Shown here piece by piece: positions 39,825 through 50,498 of a DNA stretch of 64,000 nucleotides. A model generated the notes under the pieces. It saw nothing but the letters and a program-made list of their open reading frames with translations. It was not told the origin of the DNA and searched no databases. The position numbers were made by a program, and so were the translations under genes. Origin of the DNA: Candidatus Tepidifontimicrobium thermophilum (lineage in GTDB: Bacteria; Sysuimicrobiota; Sysuimicrobiia; Sysuimicrobiales; Sysuimicrobiaceae); assembly GCA_031459915.1 (NCBI GenBank), contig JAVKHO010000008.1, forward strand, positions 51,276 to 115,275, written 5' to 3'. Every line of letters begins with the position of its first letter. Position 1 is the stretch's first letter.

Positions 39825-41441
39825 TCAGCCAGACCGCGCACCCACGCCCGATACGGCACCAGTCCCGAAGACCCGCTGGTAGACGTCCTCCGCGTGGCTG
39901 GTGGGTAGCGGCTCCGCCTCCACCATGCGGTACGTGCGCCGGCCCTGGGCGTCCCGCTCCGCCCGCAGGAACAGCACGGAGCCGGATCGCCGGGCGCGGA
40001 AGCGATCCGCCAGTTCGAAGAAGTGAGTAACGAAGAACACGCGGACCCCCGCTTCCGTCAACGCGTCCAGAACCTGGCAGGCGATCTCCGACCCCTCGCG
40101 CTCGTGGGTGGCGGAGAAGGACTCGTTGCACAGGAACACCGAGCGCGCGGTGGCGAGGTCCACGAGGGTTCGCATGCGACGGAGTTCCTCCACGAACTTG
40201 CCGGACTCCAGGCGCGGGTCCTCCTCCCGCTTGAAGTGGGTCAGCACCCCGTCACAGACGCTTACGGCGAAGGACTGGGCGGGCACGAACAGGCCCGCCT
40301 GCGCCATCAGCCAGGCGATCCCCACGCTCCGGAGGAAGGTGGTCTTGCCCCCGGAGTTGGGCCCGGTGATCAGGACGAGGCGCTTGCCGTTCGCCTCGAG
40401 GTCGTTGGGGACGACAGTTCGGTCGGTTGCCAGGGCCAGCACGGGGTCGTAGAGGCCTCGGGCGGAAAGGTTGTAGCCTGCGGGATGCACGGAGGGCAGG
40501 CAGGTGGGGAATCCGCGCCGGCGAAGCTGAGTGTGCAGCCGCAGACCGCCCACGTAGAAGGCGAGTTCGGCGCGCAGGCAGGAGAAGAAGTCCCGGACGT
40601 GGTCGGCGGCCTGGCCCACGGCCGTGGCTGCTGAGGCCAGAGCCCGGTCCCGCAGGGCCTCCAGGGCCTTGACACCCGCCTCATCGCGAGGAGACAGCTC
40701 GAAGGTGTAGGCATCCTGGCCCCGACGGAACCACGCCTTCCACCGCTCCAGCCAGCTCCGGGGGCCCTCCGGAGGCGGGTGCAGGAGGAGGTCGGTGGGC
40801 TTGTTGGCAGGCCCAAGACGCGCGCTCCAAAGGTGGCCGTGTGGTAGCCTCAGAGCGTCCAGGTGGTGTTGCATCTCACCGAGATAGGAGTCCTCCAGGT
40901 CACGGTGCAGCGCTGCGAACAAGCGCCTCCAGCCCTCGCTGTGGAAGCGAGGCGCGTGGCGATCCGCGGCGGACTTCAGCCGGCGGAGGGAGCCCAGCAG
41001 CGCCGCGAGAGTCCCGACGGACTCGCGCAGCACCCAGTCGGGGTAGCGGGCGAGGACGCCCAGATACCGGCCTTTGAGTTTGTCTGCGGCCTCCAGACTG
41101 ACCCCATACAGCTCCAGAACAGCGTCCGGGTTGTCCAGACAGTCTGCCAGTACGGCCTGTCGGTGGGCCACCACAGCAGGGTCTGCGGACGTGCCCTCCA
41201 GCAGGAGCCTCCGGCTGACCTCGAAGACCAGGTCGTCCTCCCCGGCCATGGCCTCCAGGAGGGGTAACAGCCCCAGGTCCTGGACTAGGTCGTCCACGTT
41301 TGGGGGAAGTCCCGCGGAAGGATCGAAGCCTGGGGGAGGGGCAGTGTGGTGGCCGGCCCGCAGGCCCGCTCGGACCGTGGCGGCCTGCAGGGCCCAGCGC
41401 CAGTCGAAATCCCGGTCGGGGTACAGTAGGCGCGGGGTCAT
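39825..41441 (-). CDS. MutS-domain-V ATPase lacking the mismatch-binding domain (MutS4-like subunit B)
   Basis: ITGPNSGGKTT, THFKREE, NESFSAT and VTHF. About 540 aa with no N-terminal domain I. Confidence 0.85.
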   Translation of the reverse strand: MTPRLLYPDRDFDWRWALQAATVRAGLRAGHHTAPPPGFDPSAGLPPNVDDLVQDLGLLPLLEAMAGEDDLVFEVSRRLLLEGTSADPAVVAHRQAVLADCLDNPDAVLELYGVSLEAADKLKGRYLGVLARYPDWVLRESVGTLAALLGSLRRLKSAADRHAPRFHSEGWRRLFAALHRDLEDSYLGEMQHHLDALRLPHGHLWSARLGPANKPTDLLLHPPPEGPRSWLERWKAWFRRGQDAYTFELSPRDEAGVKALEALRDRALASAATAVGQAADHVRDFFSCLRAELAFYVGGLRLHTQLRRRGFPTCLPSVHPAGYNLSARGLYDPVLALATDRTVVPNDLEANGKRLVLITGPNSGGKTTFLRSVGIAWLMAQAGLFVPAQSFAVSVCDGVLTHFKREEDPRLESGKFVEELRRMRTLVDLATARSVFLCNESFSATHEREGSEIACQVLDALTEAGVRVFFVTHFFELADRFRARRSGSVLFLRAERDAQGRRTYRMVEAEPLPTSHAEDVYQRVFGTGAVSGVGARSG

Positions 41442-42970
41442 GGGACGAAGCGCTGGCGGACGTCGTGGTACGTGAGTCGGTACCTCTGGGCCAGGGCCTC
41501 CGCGTACGCGCGCCCGTCCGCTGGACGACGCAGCACGCGGAAGGTGCGCCCTTCGGGCTGGCCTGGCGGCACCGTGGCTACCAGGCTCACGGTCTTCTCG
41601 TTCAGGGAAGCCAGCTCATCGAGGAACGTCACCCACACGCACAGGCCGCCAATCTCCAAGAGCCGGCCCAGCAGCCGTCGGCTCAGGGTGCGGGCGTCGC
41701 GGAGGGCGGTGGAGGAGAGGATCTCGTTGACGATCACCACACTTTTGGGGGTCGCAACCTGGAGGATCTCACGGATCCTCAGAAGGTCGTCTTCCAGTTT
41801 GCCGTGCAGGTCCAGCGTGTACTCTCCGCGGGGAAAGTGGGTGAGGACGTGGTCCGGCACCGGAAGGGCGGCCTGCCGGCCAGGGACCGGGCAACCGAGC
41901 GAAGCCAGGTAGAAGACCTGACCCACCGCGCGGGCGAAGGTAGTCTTTCCGCCCTGGTTGGGACCGGTGACCACCAGGGCCCGCTCCGGAGAACGGAAGA
42001 GGAAGTCGTTGAGGACCGGCACCCGGCCGTGCGCCACCAGCTTCGCGGCCAGTGCGAGGTCGAAGCAGCCCTGGGCGAAGGCTTCTGAATTGTCCGCGCG
42101 CAGGGTGGGCAAGCAGAAGGGCAGGCCTGCCGCCTCGAGGGGAGCGAGGAAGTCTAGGTAGCCCAGGTAGAACTGGGCCTCCCGGTCGAAGGCGTCGATC
42201 CAACGTGCCGGCAGTCCCCCGCACGTTCTCCGGAAGTCCGCCACCCGAAAGAACAGGTCCGGGTTCAGGCGGGAAACCCCTTCCAGGATCTGCGCTTCCA
42301 CGTGGTTCAGCTCCGCGGAGTGCCGGAACTCGAAGGCGTACGGGGTGCCGTGGGCCTGTCGGAAACGCTCGAAGGTGGACCGCACCACTTCCGCGTAGTC
42401 GGGCTCCCCCCGGTAGGGGCGGACGGTGACCCTCAGGCCCTGGACGAGCACCGCAAAGCGCAGGGACGATAGCTCCGCCTGCAGGCTCTCGGCGGCCTCC
42501 GCGAGGCTGCGGAATGCGGGGGAAGCGGCGTACGCGGCCAGCAGGTCGCGGAAGCGCACGAGCCCACGGCTGTGGAGCGGACAGGAGGACAGGCCCTCCA
42601 ACAGCGCGAGGACTGCCTGCACGTAGAGGTGGGCCGCGTCAAGGAACCAGCGGTCTTTCTCCAGCGTGGAGTATGCCTTGTCCGCACGGCGCAGGTGGGC
42701 CCGCACCGCGCGGAGGGCCGAAGCGAAGGCACGGACCGCGTCCGACACTCGGGGCTCCCGGAAATCGCGGAAGACCTCCTGGCGGAAGGAGACCGTGTCG
42801 CTGTCCCGCAGCGGGGTGTAGAAGACGGGTTCCAGGCCGTACTCCCCCCGGTCCGCCACGATGGCCTCCACCACCCGGTCCAGCTCTAAGTCCCGCAGGC
42901 ATGCGGGCGGTCGTTCCCGGAGCGCCGGAGGTTGGCCTGAAGGAAAAAGGAGGCTCGAAACCTCGTCCAT
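41438..42970 (-). CDS. MutS-domain-V ATPase lacking the mismatch-binding domain (MutS4-like subunit A)
   Basis: VTGPNQGGKTT, THFPRGE and NEILSST. Overlapping stop/start with its partner. Confidence 0.85.
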   Translation of the reverse strand: MDEVSSLLFPSGQPPALRERPPACLRDLELDRVVEAIVADRGEYGLEPVFYTPLRDSDTVSFRQEVFRDFREPRVSDAVRAFASALRAVRAHLRRADKAYSTLEKDRWFLDAAHLYVQAVLALLEGLSSCPLHSRGLVRFRDLLAAYAASPAFRSLAEAAESLQAELSSLRFAVLVQGLRVTVRPYRGEPDYAEVVRSTFERFRQAHGTPYAFEFRHSAELNHVEAQILEGVSRLNPDLFFRVADFRRTCGGLPARWIDAFDREAQFYLGYLDFLAPLEAAGLPFCLPTLRADNSEAFAQGCFDLALAAKLVAHGRVPVLNDFLFRSPERALVVTGPNQGGKTTFARAVGQVFYLASLGCPVPGRQAALPVPDHVLTHFPRGEYTLDLHGKLEDDLLRIREILQVATPKSVVIVNEILSSTALRDARTLSRRLLGRLLEIGGLCVWVTFLDELASLNEKTVSLVATVPPGQPEGRTFRVLRRPADGRAYAEALAQRYRLTYHDVRQRFVP

Positions 42971-43392
42971 CAGTGGACCACCATCACGGGGCAGTGGGCG
43001 TACCGGAGCACGCGCTCGGAGACCGAGCCCAGCATCCAGCGCTGCACAGGCGTGAGCCCGCGTCGGCCCAGGACGATGAGGTCGAAGGCTTCTTCACGGG
43101 CCACCCGTACCAGGACCTCTGCGGGGTGGCCCACCTCGGTGCGCAGGGTCACCGGAACCCCCGCCTTGCGGGCCTGGTCCCGGGCCCAGCGGAAGGCCTC
43201 CGCCAACGGTCCACGGGACTGAGCCACGGCTGCGTCCACCTCGCCCTGCAGCTCCGCGAACTCCGGCGGACGCACTACCGCCAGCGCGACCACGTCCGCG
43301 CGGTACCGGCTGGCCAGGTCCAGAGCGGCCAGCAGCGCCTTTCGGGCTGCCGGGGATCCGTCGTAGCCGACCAGTACGCGCCGGAACATCAT
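42970..43392 (-). CDS. universal stress protein
   Basis: VLVGYDGS, GHPAE and DLIVLGRRG..LGSVSERV. Confidence 0.95.
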   Translation of the reverse strand: MMFRRVLVGYDGSPAARKALLAALDLASRYRADVVALAVVRPPEFAELQGEVDAAVAQSRGPLAEAFRWARDQARKAGVPVTLRTEVGHPAEVLVRVAREEAFDLIVLGRRGLTPVQRWMLGSVSERVLRYAHCPVMVVH

Positions 43393-44576
43393 TCACCTCC
43401 GGGGGCCAGGGCCAGCTCGGGAGCCGCCTGCTGCACGTGGTGGGCGGGAAGGAAGAAGCGGTTGGCGATCCAGGTGGGCACCACCGCGCTGGCCACGACC
43501 GCGCTCACGAGGAAGGAGTACTGCGCCTGGTCGATGATGCCGTGGGTGAGGCCGTACAGGGAGGAAATGGTCCCGAAGGTGAGCCCGGTGGACATCAGCA
43601 GGGTCGTGTACATGGCCTCGTCCCGCGCGTACCGGTACGCCCGGGTCAACGGGAACACGCCGGCAAACTTGCTCAGGGCTTTGGCCGCGAAGAGCACCGC
43701 GAACGTCCCCAGACCGCCCGCCACGACGGGGAGCTGGACCAGCAGCCCCGCGCGGATGAAGTAGAAGGGGGTGAGCAGCCCGAAGGTGAGGCTGCGCAGG
43801 CGTCGGACCAGTTCGTGGTGGCGGCCCACGGTCCCCGCCAGGGCCATTCCCAACACGTACGCGGGGAGGACCGCTTCGGACCCGGACCACGCCGCCAGGG
43901 CGCCCAGGGCGAACAGCACCCCCAGGAGGAATTTCACTTCCAGCTCAGAGGTCCGGCCAGCGAAGCGGCGCAGCACGGGCCGGGCGGCGCGGGCGCAACC
44001 CCATAGGGCGACCCCGAGAGCTGCGACGAACACTACGGTGCGCCAGCTGAAGGGAGCGAACAGGAGCCCCAGAGCCACCACCGTCCCCAGGTCGTTGATG
44101 AAGCACGCTGCGAGGATGACCTTGCCGTACTCGGTGCGGTTGATCCCCAGTTCCAGGAGCACCGCGTACACGACCGCCACGGAGGTGGTGGACAGGGCGA
44201 CCCCTGCGACCCAGCTGGCCTGGGGAGCCCACCCCAGGACCTGCCGGGCGGCCCACGCGGCGCCCAAAAAGGGAGCCAGGAAGCCGGCCAGACCCATCAC
44301 CGTGGCCTCCTTCCAGCGCCTGCGGAAGGCGTCTGGGTCGAGCTCGGCTCCCGCGAGGAAGGTGAGGACCACCGATCCGGTACCCGCGAGGAAAGCCACC
44401 CAGCCATCCCGGACTCCGGGCAACGAGGTGTGGCCGAAAACCCCCATGAGCAGCTGGCTCAAGATTCCGACGAGGATCTCGGTGAGGGCTACGGAGACCC
44501 GCAGCCAGCTTCCCAGAAGGGCGGCGAGCAGGGCGAGGGCCAGCCACGCTGCCGCGGTCCACCAGATGGTTTCCAT
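43389..44576 (-). CDS. cation:proton antiporter (CPA2/Na+-H+ exchanger family)
   Basis: About 12 TM segments, with FLAGAE, STTSVAVV, NDLGTV and TPFYF motifs. Confidence 0.88.
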   Translation of the reverse strand: METIWWTAAAWLALALLAALLGSWLRVSVALTEILVGILSQLLMGVFGHTSLPGVRDGWVAFLAGTGSVVLTFLAGAELDPDAFRRRWKEATVMGLAGFLAPFLGAAWAARQVLGWAPQASWVAGVALSTTSVAVVYAVLLELGINRTEYGKVILAACFINDLGTVVALGLLFAPFSWRTVVFVAALGVALWGCARAARPVLRRFAGRTSELEVKFLLGVLFALGALAAWSGSEAVLPAYVLGMALAGTVGRHHELVRRLRSLTFGLLTPFYFIRAGLLVQLPVVAGGLGTFAVLFAAKALSKFAGVFPLTRAYRYARDEAMYTTLLMSTGLTFGTISSLYGLTHGIIDQAQYSFLVSAVVASAVVPTWIANRFFLPAHHVQQAAPELALAPGGE

Positions 44577-44605: not shown

Positions 44606-44641
44606 AAAAAGATTGGCCCCTACCCGACTTGGGTAGGAGCC
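44606..44641 (-). terminator. intrinsic terminator of fluoride riboswitch 1
   Basis: Minus-strand hairpin GGCTCCTACCC-aagtc-GGGTAGGGGCC followed by AATCTTTTT. The 5' arm is the aptamer 3' end. Confidence 0.8.
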
Positions 44642-44683
44642 ATCAGCCTCCGTGGGAGGCGGTTCGGGCGGGCTCCATCGCCC
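44633..44683 (-). ncRNA. fluoride riboswitch (crcB motif) 1
   Basis: GGGCG-AU-GGAGCC-CGCCC-GAACC-GCCUCC-CAC-GGAGGC-UGAU-GGCUCC-UAC, showing P1, pseudoknot, hairpin and the conserved GAUG/UGAU/CUAC. Confidence 0.93.
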
Positions 44684-44689
44684 GCGGGC

Positions 44690-44719
44690 ATTATCCGGCA
44701 AGCTCCCCGCGGCCGTCAA
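44690..44719 (-). promoter_or_regulatory. sigma70 promoter of the riboswitch-1 operon (TTGACG-18-GATAAT)
   Basis: -35 at 44714-44719, -10 at 44690-44695, aptamer begins 6 nt downstream. Confidence 0.7.
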
Positions 44720-44751: not shown

Positions 44752-45945
44752 TCATCGTGGTCGTAGGGGGGACCGTGCAGCGGACCAGCCGAACAACACG
44801 GCGGCGGACAGCTGCGCGCCGACCGCGAACAGAACCAGGTAGCGCGGGTGCACGTCGTACAGGAATCCCATCAGGCCGCTGCCCGCGAACCAGGCCACAC
44901 CGTATACCGTCTGGAACAGCCCGAAGGCGGAGGCCCGGCGTTCCTGGGCCACCATGCGGGCCACCGCCGCGCGCAGCACCGACTCCTGCAGGCCCACTCC
45001 CATCCCCCACAGGGCGACCCCGACCCAGGCGCCCGCAGGCCCTCCGAAAATGGCAAGAGGCGCGAACAAGGCGGTCACCGCGGTCCCCGCAGCGAGGGTC
45101 ATGGTACCGTACCGGTCGAACCAACGTCCCAGGAGCAGAGCCGCACCCGCATCCGTGGCCATAGCGAGCGCATACAGCATGGGCACGACGGCCGTCGGGA
45201 GGACGGCGGTGCGGGCGAAGTGGTACGCCAGCAGCGGGAAGTCCGCGAAACCCGCCGCCACCAGTCCGACACCGATCAGGTAGAGGCCCAGTACGCGGCG
45301 CAGCTGGAAGTCCACGGGAACCGAACTGTCCTCCAGCTGGGACGGTTGCGGGAACCGGGTGCGGGTCCAGGCGATCGTCACCAGGCAAAGGGCCGCCGGA
45401 AACGCCAGGGCCGCGAAACCCCACCGCAGGCTGCCGCCGGCAGAGAGGACCGCGGCGACCAGCAACGGACCGGCTACAGCTCCCACTTGGTCCAGGGCCT
45501 CGTGCAGGCCGAAGGCCCAGCCGGCACCTACCCGGCTTGCCGCGTACGACAGCATGGCGTCCCGGGGTGGCGTCCGTACGGCCTTGCCCGCGCGCTCAGC
45601 CACCACCAGTAGCGCAGCAGCCTCCCACCGGCCCACCAGGGCGAGGAGCGGGACGGACAGGAGGTTGGCCACGTAGCCTGCGACGGTGAGGTCCCAGAAG
45701 CGGCGGGTTCGGTCAGCCAGTCGGCCGGACACCAGGCGCAGTCCGTAGCCCACCAGCTCCCCGAACCCGGCCACGAAACCGACTACGGTGGCGGAAGCAC
45801 CTAGGGCGAGCAGATAAGGGCCGAGGATGCTGCGGGCGCCCTCGTAGGTGGCGTCCGCCAGGAGGCTGACGACGCCCATCAGTACTACGAAGCGGGTCGC
45901 TTCCCGGGCGGGGTCCTGCCGGATGCCGAGTGTCGGGGTCTTCAT
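44752..45945 (-). CDS. MFS transporter
   Basis: About 12 TM segments, with VSLLAD.TYEG, SGRLADRT, ERAGKAVRTPPRD and G.W.DR.G. Confidence 0.9.
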   Translation of the reverse strand: MKTPTLGIRQDPAREATRFVVLMGVVSLLADATYEGARSILGPYLLALGASATVVGFVAGFGELVGYGLRLVSGRLADRTRRFWDLTVAGYVANLLSVPLLALVGRWEAAALLVVAERAGKAVRTPPRDAMLSYAASRVGAGWAFGLHEALDQVGAVAGPLLVAAVLSAGGSLRWGFAALAFPAALCLVTIAWTRTRFPQPSQLEDSSVPVDFQLRRVLGLYLIGVGLVAAGFADFPLLAYHFARTAVLPTAVVPMLYALAMATDAGAALLLGRWFDRYGTMTLAAGTAVTALFAPLAIFGGPAGAWVGVALWGMGVGLQESVLRAAVARMVAQERRASAFGLFQTVYGVAWFAGSGLMGFLYDVHPRYLVLFAVGAQLSAAVLFGWSAARSPLRPR

Positions 45946-46706
45946 GGTCGGGTGGGCGACCGGATGGGTCGCGGCCGCACGTCCGGGGCGGCCCTGATCT
46001 CGTTGGGGTCGCGGCCGGCCAACACCTCCAGGGCCCGCGTCCAGCTGACACCCTGCTCCAGGGTGAGTCCCTCATGCCGGAAGCGGTAGTCGTGCTTGCG
46101 GACAAGCTCGGAGAGGTCAGCCTCCAGCCGCGCCAGGGCTTGCCGTTGGTCCTCCAGGAGGCGCTTGAGCTGTTCTGCAGACTTGGCCAGGGAGGCGGCG
46201 AGAACCAGGTGGTGCAGACACAGGGGCGCCGGACCCGCAAGGGCCTGCCGCACGTGAGGGTCCGCAGAGTGCTCCAGTAGGCTTGCCACGTACACCTCCT
46301 CCATACGCTGACGGTGCAGGCAGGCAGGGCACGGGGCAACGGGGCCCAGGAGGAGGTGGAGGGCAGACTCCGCAGCCCGTCGGCGTCCGGGCCGACTCCG
46401 GAGCGCGGCATCCAGTCGGTCCCGCAGGGCTCCCACGAGGTCCCGGTACACGATGGCGACCCCCAGGACTGGGTTGCGCTGCGCCGGCAGCGCCCACGCG
46501 TGCTCTGGGCAGAACCCCCAACTGGCCCGCAGCTCGTCGCGCATTTCAGGGTCGTTCACGCGCTCGTACAGGAAGTTGTCCAGGAACCGCTGGACCGCGT
46601 GGGTGACGAGGCGGCAGACGGGACATCCGCCAGACGCCAGGGCCTCCCGTACCCTGGCGAAGACCAGGTCGTCCCGCCGCGCGCCGCCGTGGGCGTCACC
46701 ACGCAC
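45942..46706 (-). CDS. tandem CxxC/CxxH putative zinc-binding protein (DUF6062-like)
   Basis: CPVC..YE.VND, GFCPEH, CPAC, LCLHH and RKHDYRF. Start estimated at GTG 46706. Confidence 0.75.
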
Positions 46707-47559
46707 GGCGCACGCTCCGCAGGAACCGTCCGATCCAGCTCCGGATGGGCTGCCCTTTTCCCGCATGCGGCGCCGGCGGGGAGGGAACCCGCGCGTCCGG
46801 AGGTGCAGGGGCAAGTCCGCCCGGCCGCCTTCCCCACTCGGCCAGGGATCGGCGGGCCTGTTCCACGGAGGCCTCCAGGCCCACCAGGTTCATGCGCAGC
46901 CCGCGCACGGCTTCGTCCGCCAGGTACGCGCGGTGCCGCAGGGTCGCAAGCTCGGCCCGTGCGGCCCCGAGGGCCCGCAGCGCGTCGTCCGGCGCAGGCC
47001 ACAGGTGTACCGCCGCGCCGTAACCGAGGAGGATCCGCAGGCCTTCTGGCTCGGTCCAACCCTCCGTCCGCAGGACGCCGTCCACCGCCTGGGCTGCCTC
47101 CTCGTCCAGGGAAACGTGCACCGTGGCCAGGACGTCGTGTTCGCCCGCGGGCGTAAGCTGCCCTTTTCCAAGCCCTTTTTCCGGCGGCCCGGACGGTGCC
47201 CCCTGCTGGCTCCGCAGGGCGAACAGATCCCGGCGCAGCCGCGTGTACTCCACGCTGAGGCTAGCCACCTGTTCACGGAGGATGTCCCGCTCCCTCTCGC
47301 GAGCCAGGGTCCGGGCGCGCATGGACAGCGCGTGCGCAAGGGCTTCCCGGCGCTGCAGCTCGAGCCGCACGCCGTCCCGATCGGGCGCCCTGGACGCGGC
47401 CAGTTCCTCCCACGTCCTCTGGTCGGCTGCGTACCGGCGCGCGCCCTCGGCGACAAGCCACGCGAGGCCGACCTCGAGGGGCCAGAAACCAAGGGAGGAC
47501 AGGCCCTCCGCCAGCTGCGCCAGGTCCTCGCCAGACAGGGTCAGAATCAGGTCCCGCAT
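46696..47559 (-). CDS. hypothetical coiled-coil protein with internal duplication
   Basis: First ATG directly after the riboswitch-2 terminator. Two similar halves. Overlaps the next start. Confidence 0.7.
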
Positions 47560-47566
47560 CCCGAAC

Positions 47567-47598
47567 AAAAAGCTCCTACTGGCAACCCAGTAGGAGCT
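47567..47598 (-). terminator. intrinsic terminator of fluoride riboswitch 2
   Basis: Perfect 12-bp hairpin AGCTCCTACTGG-gttg-CCAGTAGGAGCT plus a T-run. Overlaps the aptamer 3' end. Confidence 0.9.
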
Positions 47599-47642
47599 AT
47601 CAACCCGGCGAACCGGGTACACAAGGGCGAGCCCCATCGCCC
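47590..47642 (-). ncRNA. fluoride riboswitch (crcB motif) 2
   Basis: GGGCG-AU-GGGGCU-CGCCC-UUGUGU-ACCCGG-UUCG-CCGGGU-UGAU-AGCUCC-UAC. Same fold as copy 1 with compensatory changes. Confidence 0.92.
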
Positions 47643-47650
47643 GCACGTCC

Positions 47651-47679
47651 AAGATAAGGGGGCCGACGACCCTCGTCAA
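47651..47679 (-). promoter_or_regulatory. sigma70 promoter of the riboswitch-2 operon (TTGACG-17-TATCTT)
   Basis: -35 at 47674-47679 and -10 at 47651-47656. Confidence 0.7.
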
Positions 47680-47724
47680 CCGGCCCTGAGGACCGGGCGA
47701 CTCTCGGGAGCGGTCGAGCGGCCC

Positions 47725-47756
47725 TTGACCTTCCAGGGTCGTGGAAGGTTTACCGT
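47725..47756 (+). promoter_or_regulatory. MerR-family metal-responsive promoter with ACCTTCCA-N6-TGGAAGGT dyad
   Basis: TTGACC-20 bp-TACCGT. The elongated spacer holds a perfect 8-bp inverted repeat resembling CueR-type boxes. Confidence 0.88.
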
Positions 47757-47778
47757 CTTCCGGGAGGAGGTGGTGCGC

Positions 47779-50007
47779 GTGACTTGGAGCCCGCAGCGGC
47801 TGCACCTCAAGCTGGGTGGGATGCACTGCTCCCTCTGTGTGGAGTCCGTGCGCAAGGCGGTCCTGCGGCTCCCCGGGGTACGGTCCGTGCACGTGTCCAT
47901 CGCGCACGAGGAGGCCCTGGTGGAGTACGAGCCGGACCGCCTGTCCGCCGAGGCCATCTCCAGGGCGCTGGAGGACATCGGGTTCCGCGTGCGCCCCCCG
48001 GACGAGGCTATCCGGGTCCAGGAGGAAGAGACCGAGCTGCGCCGGGCTCGCGGTCTGGCGTGGTGGGCCGGCGTCCTGCTCGGGCTGGCGAGCGTCCTGA
48101 TGGTAGCCAGCGCCCTCTGGGGTCCGAGCCGGCCGCGGGCCCTCGCTATGGGCGGCCTGGCCGTGTTCGCGGCTGTGGGCCCCGGCCGCTGGGTGTTGCG
48201 CAACGCCTGGCAGTCCCTCCGCCGGGGCATTCTGAACCAGGACGTGCTGGCCGCCGCATCCGCCCTCGCGGGCGTGGCGGGAGGGACCGTGGGCTTGGTA
48301 CTTCCGGGTTTCCCTCCCGGGGAGTTCTTCGGGGCTGCGGTGTTCGTCTTCGCCTTCCACATCGTCGGCGGCTACCTGTCGGTCGCGGTGCACGTGCGGG
48401 CGTCGCAGTCCGTGCGCCGGCTCCTGAGCCTGGCGCCGTCTACCGCGTGGCGGCTGTTGCCCGACGGTTCCGAGGAGGAGGTCCCCGCGAGCAACCTGCG
48501 GCCTGGAGACCGGGTACGGGTCCGCCCGGGCGAGCGCGTTCCCGCGGACGGGGTGGTGGTGCAGGGTGCTTCGGCGGTGGACGAGAGCCTGCTGACCGGG
48601 GAACCCATGCCGGTAGACAAGTCTGCGGGCGACGAGGTGGTGGGTGGGTCGCTGAACCAGCTGGGGAGCCTCGTGGTGGAGGTGACCCGGGTCGGTCCGG
48701 ACAGCTTCCTCCAGGCGGTGGCGCGGCACGTGGCGGAGGCCCGGGCCCTCAAGCCGGGGGTGCTGCGGCTGGTGGATTGGGTCCTCCTGTGGTTCGTGCC
48801 GGTCGTCTTCGCTGCCGGAGCTGCGGGATTCCTCGCTTGGACGCTTGGTGGAATGCTGGTCGTGGGCCGACCCGACTGGGCGCGGGCGGCCTTCGCGGCC
48901 TTGAGCGCGCTCGTGATGGGCTACCCCTGCGCCCTGGGGATGGCGACGCCGCTCGCCATCGTCCGGGCTTCCGGCGAGGCGGCCCGACGCGGGATCCTCA
49001 TGCGGTCCGGGGAAGCCTTCCAGCTTCTGGGTCGAGTGGACACCTTCGTGCTGGACAAGACCGGCACCGTGACGGAGGGCAGGCCCCGTCTGGCGGCCTG
49101 CAGGACCCTCGGGATGGCGGAGGAGGAGCTCCTGCGGCTGGCCGCCGGAGCCGAGAGCCCATCTGAGCACCCCTTGGCCAGGGCGGTGGTGGAGGGTGCC
49201 GCGACGCGAGGAATCGGCGTGCCTGGTGCTGCGGACTTCGGGGCTCACCCGGGTCAGGGCATCGAGGCCCGGGTGGACGGGCGATGGGTCCTAGCCGGCA
49301 GCGCTAGGTTCCTGCGCGAACGCGGGGTGGACACAGCACCGCTTGCATCCGTCGCGCGAGAGCTACAAGGCCGGGGCCAGACCACGGTCCTGGTAGCCGT
49401 GGACGGGCGCCCCGCTGGTGTTTTGGGCATCGAAGACCCGCTCAAGCGCGACGCGGCGGAAACGGTGCGTGAGCTGCGGGGCAGAGATTGCCGGGTCGTC
49501 CTCCTGACGGGCGACGACCGGCGCACCGCCCAGGCCGTGGCGCAGGAGGCCTGCATCGAGGAGGTCCTGAGTGAGGTCCTGCCGGGGCAGAAGGCGGAGG
49601 TGGTCCGGGCGCTGCAGGCACAGGGACGGCGCGTGGCCATGGTGGGAGACGGGATCAACGACGCGCCGGCCCTCATGCAGGCGGACGTGGGGGTGGCGAT
49701 GGGCGCGGGCGCCGACATCGCAGTGGACTCCGCGGACGTGGTGCTGGTGAGCGGACGCCTGGGCGCCCTGGTGGACGCGGTGGAGCTGGCCCGCCGCAGC
49801 TACGGCCTGACCGTGGGCAACGTGGCCGTAGCTCTGGCGTTCAACGGAGTGGGGGTTGTGGCGGCCACCAGCGGGTTGGTCAGGCCGGTGTGGGCCATGC
49901 TGGCGATGGCGGTGAGTGTGGGGCTCGTCTTGGCCAGGTCTTTGGTGGGCCGCCTGGGGCGGGTGCGGGAGCGCCAACTCGCAGGAGGTGCTCCGCTGCA
50001 GGAATAA
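47779..50007 (+). CDS. heavy-metal translocating P1B-type ATPase (atypical YPC motif)
   Basis: HMA GMHCSLC, TGE, YPCALG, DKTGT, SEHP and GDGINDAP. Confidence 0.93.
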
Positions 50008-50042
50008 GGAATATGGGAGACAGGGCGCCAGGAGGTGAACCC

Positions 50043-50498
50043 GTGCGCGGACGGGTGAGCGAGAAGGTCGGAGCCCGGATCGGCGAGCTGGCTCGCGGGT
50101 TCGGCCTCAACCCGAGGACCCTGCGGTACTACGAGTCGGTGGGCCTGCTGCGGCCGCGGAGGACGGCCTCCGGATACCGGGTGTACGATGACCGGGACCG
50201 GGACCGGTTGCGGTTCGTCCTGCGGGCAAAGCGGGCGGGGCTGACGCTGCGGGAGATGGCAGAGATCCTGACGCTGTGGGATCGCGGGGAGGCGCCGTGC
50301 GGGTACGTGCGAGGCTGGCTGGAGCGGAGGCTGCGGGAGGTGGAGGCCCAGCTGAGAGCCCTGCGAGTGTTGCGGCAGGAGCTGGGGCGGCTGCGCCGCC
50401 GGGCGGCCCGACGTCCCCGCGGGGAGCCTCCCTGCGTGTGCCCGATCCTCGAGGAGGCTCGCGACGGTTCGGGCCCGTCTGCGTGGCGGGCCGGGTGA
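50043..50498 (+). CDS. MerR-family heavy-metal-responsive regulator
   Basis: RIGELA..TLRYYE, GYRVY, and Cys in APCGY and PPCVCPIL. GGAGGT SD. Confidence 0.92.
   Translation: MRGRVSEKVGARIGELARGFGLNPRTLRYYESVGLLRPRRTASGYRVYDDRDRDRLRFVLRAKRAGLTLREMAEILTLWDRGEAPCGYVRGWLERRLREVEAQLRALRVLRQELGRLRRRAARRPRGEPPCVCPILEEARDGSGPSAWRAG

Follow-up and report, generated by a model that had tools for sequence, protein, structure and literature searches.

A fluoride-riboswitch operon with a candidate accessory MFS antiporter in Candidatus Tepidifontimicrobium thermophilum

Introduction

What does a fluoride riboswitch control in a genome where no known fluoride exporter is found? This question is raised by a 64,000-nucleotide stretch of the Candidatus Tepidifontimicrobium thermophilum genome (phylum Sysuimicrobiota; GenBank assembly GCA_031459915.1, contig JAVKHO010000008.1, positions 51,276 to 115,275), which was analysed as a whole and is called the window here. 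In the window, a predicted riboswitch (riboswitch 2) precedes three genes that encode a coiled-coil protein (ORF1), a DUF6062 protein (ORF2) and a major facilitator superfamily (MFS) transporter. According to excerpts of PMC11139923, Fluc or CLC-F is present in more than 85% of reference bacteria, and both occur together in ~3% of genomes; the other articles with PMC or bioRxiv identifiers are likewise cited from excerpts. A first-pass annotation of the window had proposed the three proteins as a fluoride exporter unit. Our analysis points, tentatively and with a probability of about 0.45, to a different reading, in which the operon is accessory and induced by fluoride, and its MFS protein is likely a proton-coupled antiporter rather than part of a three-protein pump.

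Results

Riboswitch 2 resembles a fluoride-type ON switch

Against the Rfam family RF01734, riboswitch 2 scored 28 bits (E=2e-4), below the 34-bit cut-off, and a second element in the window, riboswitch 1, was the sole window match above it; genome-wide, these two were the only matches. The low score of riboswitch 2 likely stems from an unusual linker without the usual AAC. Other sub-threshold fluoride switches, beside crcB, are described in excerpts of bioRxiv 10.64898/2026.10.21.760802. We also trained a riboswitch model, R1, on 26 of these RNAs, which replaced a regular-expression scan that missed many Rfam matches. Riboswitch 2 scored 49.7 bits with R1, whose training included this very sequence, and R1 therefore favours the 26 sequences on which it was trained.

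Pairing of P1, the pseudoknot and P2 came to 97.8% over 26 orthologous leaders, with 17 compensatory cells, a level reached by 0 of 500 shuffles; since the leaders are kin, such shuffle counts overstate significance. The terminator hairpin (47598-47571; fold -23 kcal/mol, z=-6.1) was 96.5% paired across the same leaders. As the first-pass annotation had noted, the first gene begins a few nucleotides past the U-tract: the ATG of ORF1 lies 11 nt past the hairpin and 7 nt past a run of 5 U. Two promoter-like sites, one per switch, were found against 0.1 expected in shuffles, and a TTGAC -35 box was visible in most of 24 orthologous leaders. An aptamer with an overlapping terminator is how a transcriptional ON switch is laid out (excerpts of PMC2864571), and we infer that riboswitch 2 is a fluoride-type switch of this kind that binds fluoride. 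In public RNA runs, contig depth was flat and low in X1 and X2, and X4 and X5 gave 2 and 0 raw reads, respectively.

The operon parts are co-regulated modules that reshuffle

All three ORFs lie on the minus strand and, as had been read from the coordinates at the outset, overlap at both junctions, by 11 nt between ORF1 and ORF2 (46696/46706) and by 4 nt (ATGA) between ORF2 and the MFS gene (45942/45945). The three may be translationally coupled. Do they also form one unit? In a sample of 94 genomes of the phylum, the MFS subfamily was present in 28, after four matches near E=1e-31 had been dropped. The contiguous order of switch, RHHa, RHHb, DUF6062 and MFS, in which RHHa and RHHb are the two likely ribbon-helix-helix (RHH) halves of ORF1, was observed in 5 of the 28 carriers (G000, G089, G090, G039 and G040); in G035, genes for a CPA2-family cation/proton antiporter (CPA2) and a universal stress protein (USP) intervene. 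Six genomes had switch-RHHa-RHHb-MFS without DUF6062; over all 28 carriers, no DUF6062 was found in 9, and seven of these are at least 94% complete. MFS was convergent to DUF6062 in five genomes, in four of which it stood behind a switch and CPA2. In two more arrangements, DUF6062 lay downstream of MFS and apart from the RHH pair (two genomes), and MFS had its own switch (three genomes). Among 80 GTDB loci of close MFS relatives, only 2 contained RHH genes, both of the window's genus.

The operon parts are co-regulated modules that reshuffle among genomes, and an obligate complex of ORF1, DUF6062 and MFS is unlikely. A single fluoride-exporting complex of the three could be argued from the overlapping stops and starts in the window, and from DUF6062 adjoining the MFS gene, in either orientation, in 14 of the 19 phylum genomes that carry the two genes. 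However, in addition to the reshuffling, neither partner has a predicted membrane helix: peak hydropathy of the two was 1.27 and 1.46, against 1.94 for MFS, and both look soluble. We regard such a complex as very improbable, and the exporter unit of the first-pass annotation, whose MFS gene is often on another transcript, is not supported.

The MFS subfamily is linked to fluoride in part

We scanned the 80 GTDB loci with R1 and observed a riboswitch of at least 25 bits within 5 kb, in the fetched flanks, in 42 of them. In 27 loci, a riboswitch of at least 24 bits stood upstream of MFS, on its strand and at most 3.5 kb away, and in 8 the distance was at most 400 nt; with Rfam alone, 9 of the 14 MFS loci examined had one. 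The association was spread across many phyla and across the MFS tree, which left out L001 and L158, and the rough chance of such proximity in the window's genome was 0.008. In the phylum sample, 42 of the 94 genomes had an Rfam fluoride riboswitch and 52 were without. The 42 divide into 27 of the 28 MFS carriers versus 15 of the 66 other genomes, a comparison among kin that are not independent; the 28th carrier has a riboswitch by R1. Neighbours in the 80 loci included genes for enolase (9), histidine phosphatase (10), MutS-like proteins (13), CPA2 (13) and Hyf (6-7), all of which are among the known fluoride accessory genes in excerpts of PMC11139923 and PMC5533749. ChrB_N was near MFS in 3 of the 80 (L017, L039 and L046).

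An even sample of 401 Acidobacteriota genomes, which includes the unpublished G166 (Fluc match, no MFS match), gave a different picture. Among its 18 MFS carriers, a riboswitch lay near MFS in only 2, and MFS had mixed surroundings in the rest; therefore, part of the MFS family is fluoride-linked, but the family as a whole is not dedicated to fluoride. Enrichment of MFS near fluoride riboswitches was thus seen in the GTDB loci and in the phylum, with low linkage in Acidobacteriota.

Could MFS be a generic transporter carried along in mobile fluoride islands, with no fluoride role of its own? Such a passenger would fit the 35 of 80 loci that lack both a riboswitch and any listed fluoride marker gene, as well as 16 of 17 newly fetched Acidobacteriota loci without a riboswitch in the fetched flanks. 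However, various riboswitches precede MFS, in many phyla and gene orders, and a sister subfamily (about 32% identity) occupies the same fluoride-island slot (L160:5575-6816 and L162:3625-4866, in G002 and G014). MFS and the CPA2 subfamily also tend to share genomes when the two are not linked, CPA2 being present in 6 of 18 MFS carriers versus 13 of 383 others in Acidobacteriota. We consider a mere passenger improbable.

Four Acidobacteriota loci (L220, L221, L222 and L224) had the order BlaI/CopY repressor, unknown protein, MFS without a riboswitch, and a TonB receptor adjoined in three of the four. A metal-efflux role for MFS was considered and not adopted because the RND neighbours fell under the CusA/CzcA cut-offs and the contexts were mixed. 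A phosphate-like substrate, suggested by ChrA/ChrB neighbours, is a weak lead. MFS genes are reportedly among the riboswitch-associated genes of Baker 2012. Our literature search found no paper on this MFS subfamily, which Additional files 1 and 3 of PMC2864571 may list; "MFS" and "facilitator" are absent from the main text of PMC11139923, PMC11777429 and PMC5533749, and "MFS" is absent from that of PMC12667848.

MFS does not exclude Fluc

In the window's genome, which is 96% complete, no Fluc was found (best CRCB match 14.3 bits, cut-off 32.9) and there was no CLC match. Across the phylum sample, 6 of the 94 genomes had Fluc and 14 had CLC, and none of these 14 showed the CLC-F motifs sought (GNNLI/GMGLI, GREGT/V and GEVTP, from excerpts of PMC11139923). 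Because Fluc is this rare and CLC-F motifs were not seen, the gene content of the phylum would favour a still unrecognised exporter.

Is this exporter the MFS protein? Acting alone as an F-/H+ antiporter or F- uniporter, it would found a third prokaryotic fluoride exporter family, with the RHH pair and DUF6062 as co-regulated extras. The lack of Fluc and CLC matches in the window's genome speaks for this idea, as do the 42 phylum genomes with riboswitches beside only 6 with Fluc. Furthermore, 16 of 21 MFS carriers that are at least 90% complete had no Fluc match, and 8 had no CPA2 match either (G007 holds a CPA2 fragment). The 8 loci in which MFS has its own riboswitch within 400 nt, an MFS-DUF190 fusion, and the conserved R38, R118, K121 and R124 with motif C (see below) point the same way.

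However, mutual exclusion as between exporter types was not found between MFS and Fluc in either the phylum or the Acidobacteriota sample. Fluc was present in 5 of 28 MFS carriers versus 1 of 66 others in the phylum, and in 8 of 18 versus 195 of 383 in Acidobacteriota. It was also present in 28 of the first 50 locus genomes (L001-L050 of the 80 MFS loci) and in the same locus as MFS in about 9-10 of 80. Because of this co-occurrence, we tentatively take MFS to be an accessory rather than a substitute. CLC was sought in 20 of the 22 Fluc-less locus genomes, the other two matching G089 and G090, which the phylum CLC search covered; 13 of the 20 had CLC, and no CLC-F motif was seen in the 21 loci. 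We also observed that 58 of the 94 phylum genomes, many of them incomplete metagenome-assembled genomes, had no match for MFS, Fluc or CPA2, and so the absence of Fluc need not imply a substitute. Low riboswitch linkage in the unbiased Acidobacteriota sample, the rival candidate CPA2 behind riboswitch 1, cavity residues that are the same with and without a riboswitch, and the many carboxylates in the helices also speak against fluoride export by MFS alone, which we judge possible but doubtful. We extend the same guarded credence to a broader version, in which the MFS subfamily is a third exporter class that moves F- or a Mg-fluoride complex against protons as the phylum's main defence, and in which the RHH pair and zinc-binding DUF6062 add a new protein-level layer to the fluoride response.

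Alternatively, the CPA2 antiporter behind riboswitch 1 might replace Fluc, leaving the MFS operon secondary, which would be compatible with an accessory role for MFS. In the window's family (12 genomes), CPA2 (6 genomes) and Fluc (5 genomes) overlap once and MFS is in all 12; CPA2 also lies directly behind a riboswitch in most phylum loci where this was mapped. However, the family pattern is not significant (one-sided p=0.12), Fluc was present in 7 of 19 CPA2 carriers versus 196 of 382 others in Acidobacteriota (p=0.25) and so the two are not exclusive, and such antiporters are taken as pH homeostasis genes in excerpts of PMC11139923. Replacement of Fluc by CPA2 is, in our judgement, unlikely.

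The MFS protein resembles 12-helix antiporters

The MFS protein matched the MFS_1 profile at 103 bits, gave no CRCB profile match, and was modelled by AF2 (pLDDT 91.6) in a 12-helix two-bundle fold. Two motifs that the first-pass annotation had called conserved, D31-x-T33-Y34-E35-G36 and E117-R118-x-G120-K121, were indeed 90-100% conserved among 110 homologues, and the subfamily signature reads D-x-TYEG-x-R, ERxGKxxRxPxRD and HExxDQ. Antiporter motif C is defined in excerpts of PMC10604125 as G-x8-G-x3-GP-x2-GG in helix 5; its first four positions, G146-x8-G155-x3-G159-P160, were invariant in the 110 homologues. Conserved charged residues in the helices comprised 11 acidic and 9 basic ones, plus 2 histidines. 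Conserved polar and cavity residues, the cavity-lining ones being assigned from helix number, were identical in members with and without a riboswitch. In L003:2045-3637 (= G086) and L141, MFS is fused to or followed by DUF190 and faces a convergent, riboswitch-controlled Fluc gene.

ORF1 and DUF6062 have a fluoride context

ORF1 had no Pfam or NCBIfam match. Its homologues each align to one half only, the first or the second, the halves are paralogous (hhalign 97.3%) and each is a ~150-aa gene elsewhere, and a stop codon parts RHHa from RHHb in the two closest relatives; judged by these comparisons, ORF1 is therefore a fusion of two paralogous genes. An X2 RNA contig spans 47079-47278 without differences and thus supports the fusion as real DNA. 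Each half has a predicted beta-alpha-alpha pattern followed by a coiled coil, and ORF1 is likely a pair of RHH/coiled-coil proteins. RelB matched ORF1 at E=0.01, ranked beneath many DARPin chance matches; RHH_1 matched 1 of 18 members of the ORF1 family at E=0.027, the Atlas score for RHH was 0.80-0.82, and no RHH match for the first half was among the best 60 matches listed. By eye, no conserved RHH operator was seen upstream of the 24 orthologous leaders. Other tandem fusions of RHH-like paralogues were P0230, P0265, P0122 and P0123, and ~60 distant single-unit relatives were found in a 1.84-billion library.

ORF2 matched DUF6062 (PF19538) at 57.2 bits (cut-off 27; Atlas 0.97). It has two CxxC...CxxH sets as putative zinc sites (C28/C31/C66/H69 and C126/C129/C163/H166), which were at least 90% conserved in 65 sequences, and a conserved RKHDYRF motif. 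Its confident, all-helical model (pLDDT 92.1) had no Foldseek match at E<=0.001, and the best VIA Z was 4.8 with an rmsd of 4.4 over 99 residues; this does not show the fold to be new.

The fetched loci contained 25 ORFs with DUF6062, and 21 of these came after a fluoride riboswitch; the proportion is biased upward, since MFS genes or riboswitches were the starting points for fetching the loci. In loci picked in the same way, each of the 24 RHHa genes directly followed a switch. The fluoride context suggested at the outset for DUF6062 and the coiled-coil family is supported by these counts. DUF6062 was also fused to the C-terminus of dynamin-like GTPases behind fluoride riboswitches (L033:2554-4251 and L034:9455-11188 by Pfam, L027:7228-8907 by BLAST) and duplicated behind another (L155:3510-5093). 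Given the GTPase fusions, DUF6062 is likely a soluble zinc-binding adaptor. A literature search on DUF6062 found no paper. Dynamin-like genes recur in about 17 of the 80 MFS loci.

The operon lies beside a second riboswitch-controlled operon

The features of the operon and of the neighbouring riboswitch 1 operon are collected in Table 1.

Table 1. Predicted features of the two riboswitch-controlled operons in the window
Feature	Coordinates	Strand	Basis
Sigma70-type promoter-like site of the operon, TTGACG-17-TATCTT	47651..47679	-	Directly upstream of riboswitch 2
Fluoride riboswitch aptamer 2, with variant linker, P1, 6-bp pseudoknot and a P2 that ends in a UUCG loop	47584..47650	-	Rfam and covariation
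Intrinsic terminator with a U-tract after a 12-bp hairpin that overlaps the 3' strand of the pseudoknot	47567..47598	-	Folding and conservation
ORF1, 287 aa, ATG start, fusion of RHHa (~1-135) and RHHb (~140-287)	46696..47559	-	Beta-alpha-alpha and coiled-coil halves
ORF2, DUF6062 protein, 254 aa, GTG start, all-helical	45942..46706	-	Pfam and model
MFS transporter, 397 aa, 12 helices	44752..45945	-	MFS_1 profile, model, conservation
Second promoter-like site, TTGACG-18-GATAAT, about 30 nt past the MFS stop	44690..44719	-	Site search
Fluoride riboswitch 1 (canonical, 54 bits) with terminator	44614..44691	-	Rfam match 44627-44691
Cation/proton antiporter of the CPA2 family, first in the riboswitch 1 operon	43389..44576	-	Profile match
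Universal stress protein (USP)	42970..43392	-	Profile match
Two tandem MutS-domain-V ATPases (41438-42970, 39825-41441)	39825..42970	-	Profile match

A heavy-metal P-type ATPase gene (47773-50007) is divergent from riboswitch 2. Upstream of it, a palindrome at 47724-47752 (+) overlaps a TTGACC -35 box; we presume a likeness to a CueR/MerR operator. A MerR-like ORF lies at 49890-50498, and the copper ATPase is also near MFS in L001 and G084. Elsewhere, the chromate transporter ChrA follows riboswitch-CPA2 in three genomes of one genus (L166, L167 and L168; G060-G062) and is divergent in one more (L147), and MFS was not found in these. Fluoride riboswitches of family f5 (L154, L156, L170, L172, L181; L182) control triads of MoxR AAA, DUF58 and a large protein, Hyf-type hydrogenase genes and an H+-pyrophosphatase. 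Links of riboswitches to antiporters, mutS-like genes, enolase, pyrophosphatase and USP have already been described (excerpts of PMC2864571, PMC11139923 and PMC5533749).

Discussion

We propose that, when cytoplasmic fluoride rises, binding of Mg2+/F- would stabilise the pseudoknot of riboswitch 2 and block the terminator, and the three genes would be transcribed. The second promoter and switch would drive the CPA2-USP-MutS-like operon separately. MFS would act alone, as a likely proton-coupled antiporter, beside whatever exports F-, and its substrate would likely be a charged inorganic species that fluoride disturbs (a Mg2+-anion or a phosphate-like solute) rather than bare F-. ORF1, as a likely fused pair of RHH DNA-binding proteins, would extend the response, with DUF6062 as the probable adaptor.

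Several observations weigh against this accessory operon. In addition to the sparse riboswitch linkage among Acidobacteriota carriers, 23 of the 28 phylum MFS carriers had no Fluc match, and no CLC retrieved had CLC-F motifs. The final GG of motif C is absent from MFS. The structural relatives of MFS are at most 19% identical to it, and the proposed substrate is a guess. DUF190 (PII-like), which is fused to or next to MFS, also flanks Fluc in these loci. Finally, the RHH assignment of ORF1 rests on weak matches.

The locus matters because riboswitches in this phylum are common (42 of 94 genomes), yet Fluc is rare and CLC-F motifs were not seen; the island narrows the question of fluoride handling to two candidate genes, MFS and CPA2. 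If either exports fluoride, it would add a fold to those of the known exporters, which would bear on fluoride tolerance in the engineering of defluorination. Even if neither does, the operon would for the first time place DUF6062, an unnamed RHH-like family and an orphan MFS subfamily in a physiological setting.

How does the operon compare with known systems? NorA, MdfA and OxlT, which are 12-helix MFS antiporters, share the fold of the MFS protein (Foldseek E ~1e-8, TM 0.66-0.76) and its G-x8-G-x3-GP. However, MFS is only 15-17% identical to them and has far more charged conserved residues in its helices. Because of this low identity, and because no NCBIfam cut-off was reached, no substrate can be transferred to MFS. 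Similar to Fluc (CrcB) and CLC-F, MFS is a membrane protein behind a fluoride switch, and similar to Fluc in the fetched loci, it has DUF190 as a neighbour or fusion; unlike Fluc and CLC-F, it has another fold, lacks their signature motifs and is not mutually exclusive with Fluc. RHH regulators (RelB, CopG, NikA-like) share with ORF1 the beta-alpha-alpha N-terminal pattern of both halves and the pairing of genes, whereas ORF1 differs in its long coiled-coil tails, in its weak statistical support and in that no toxin partner or conserved operator was seen.

Riboswitch 2 differs from the typical fluoride (crcB) riboswitch of RF01734 in its linker without AAC and in controlling no Fluc or CLC-F gene, but shares with it P1, the pseudoknot, P2, the conserved UGAU core and the overlapping terminator. 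RF01734 switches are known before mutS-like, antiporter and USP genes, as in this island (excerpts of PMC2864571). A close parallel to the operon is the Enterobacter cloacae FRM operon, ppaC-uspA-eno-gpmA-crcB-orf5249. There is no crcB here; instead there are the RHH-like fusion, DUF6062 and MFS, none of them characterised. However, MFS loci homologous to that of the window have enolase, phosphatase, pyrophosphatase and USP genes as neighbours and so resemble the FRM operon, in which, as here, one switch controls several accessory genes (excerpts of PMC5533749).

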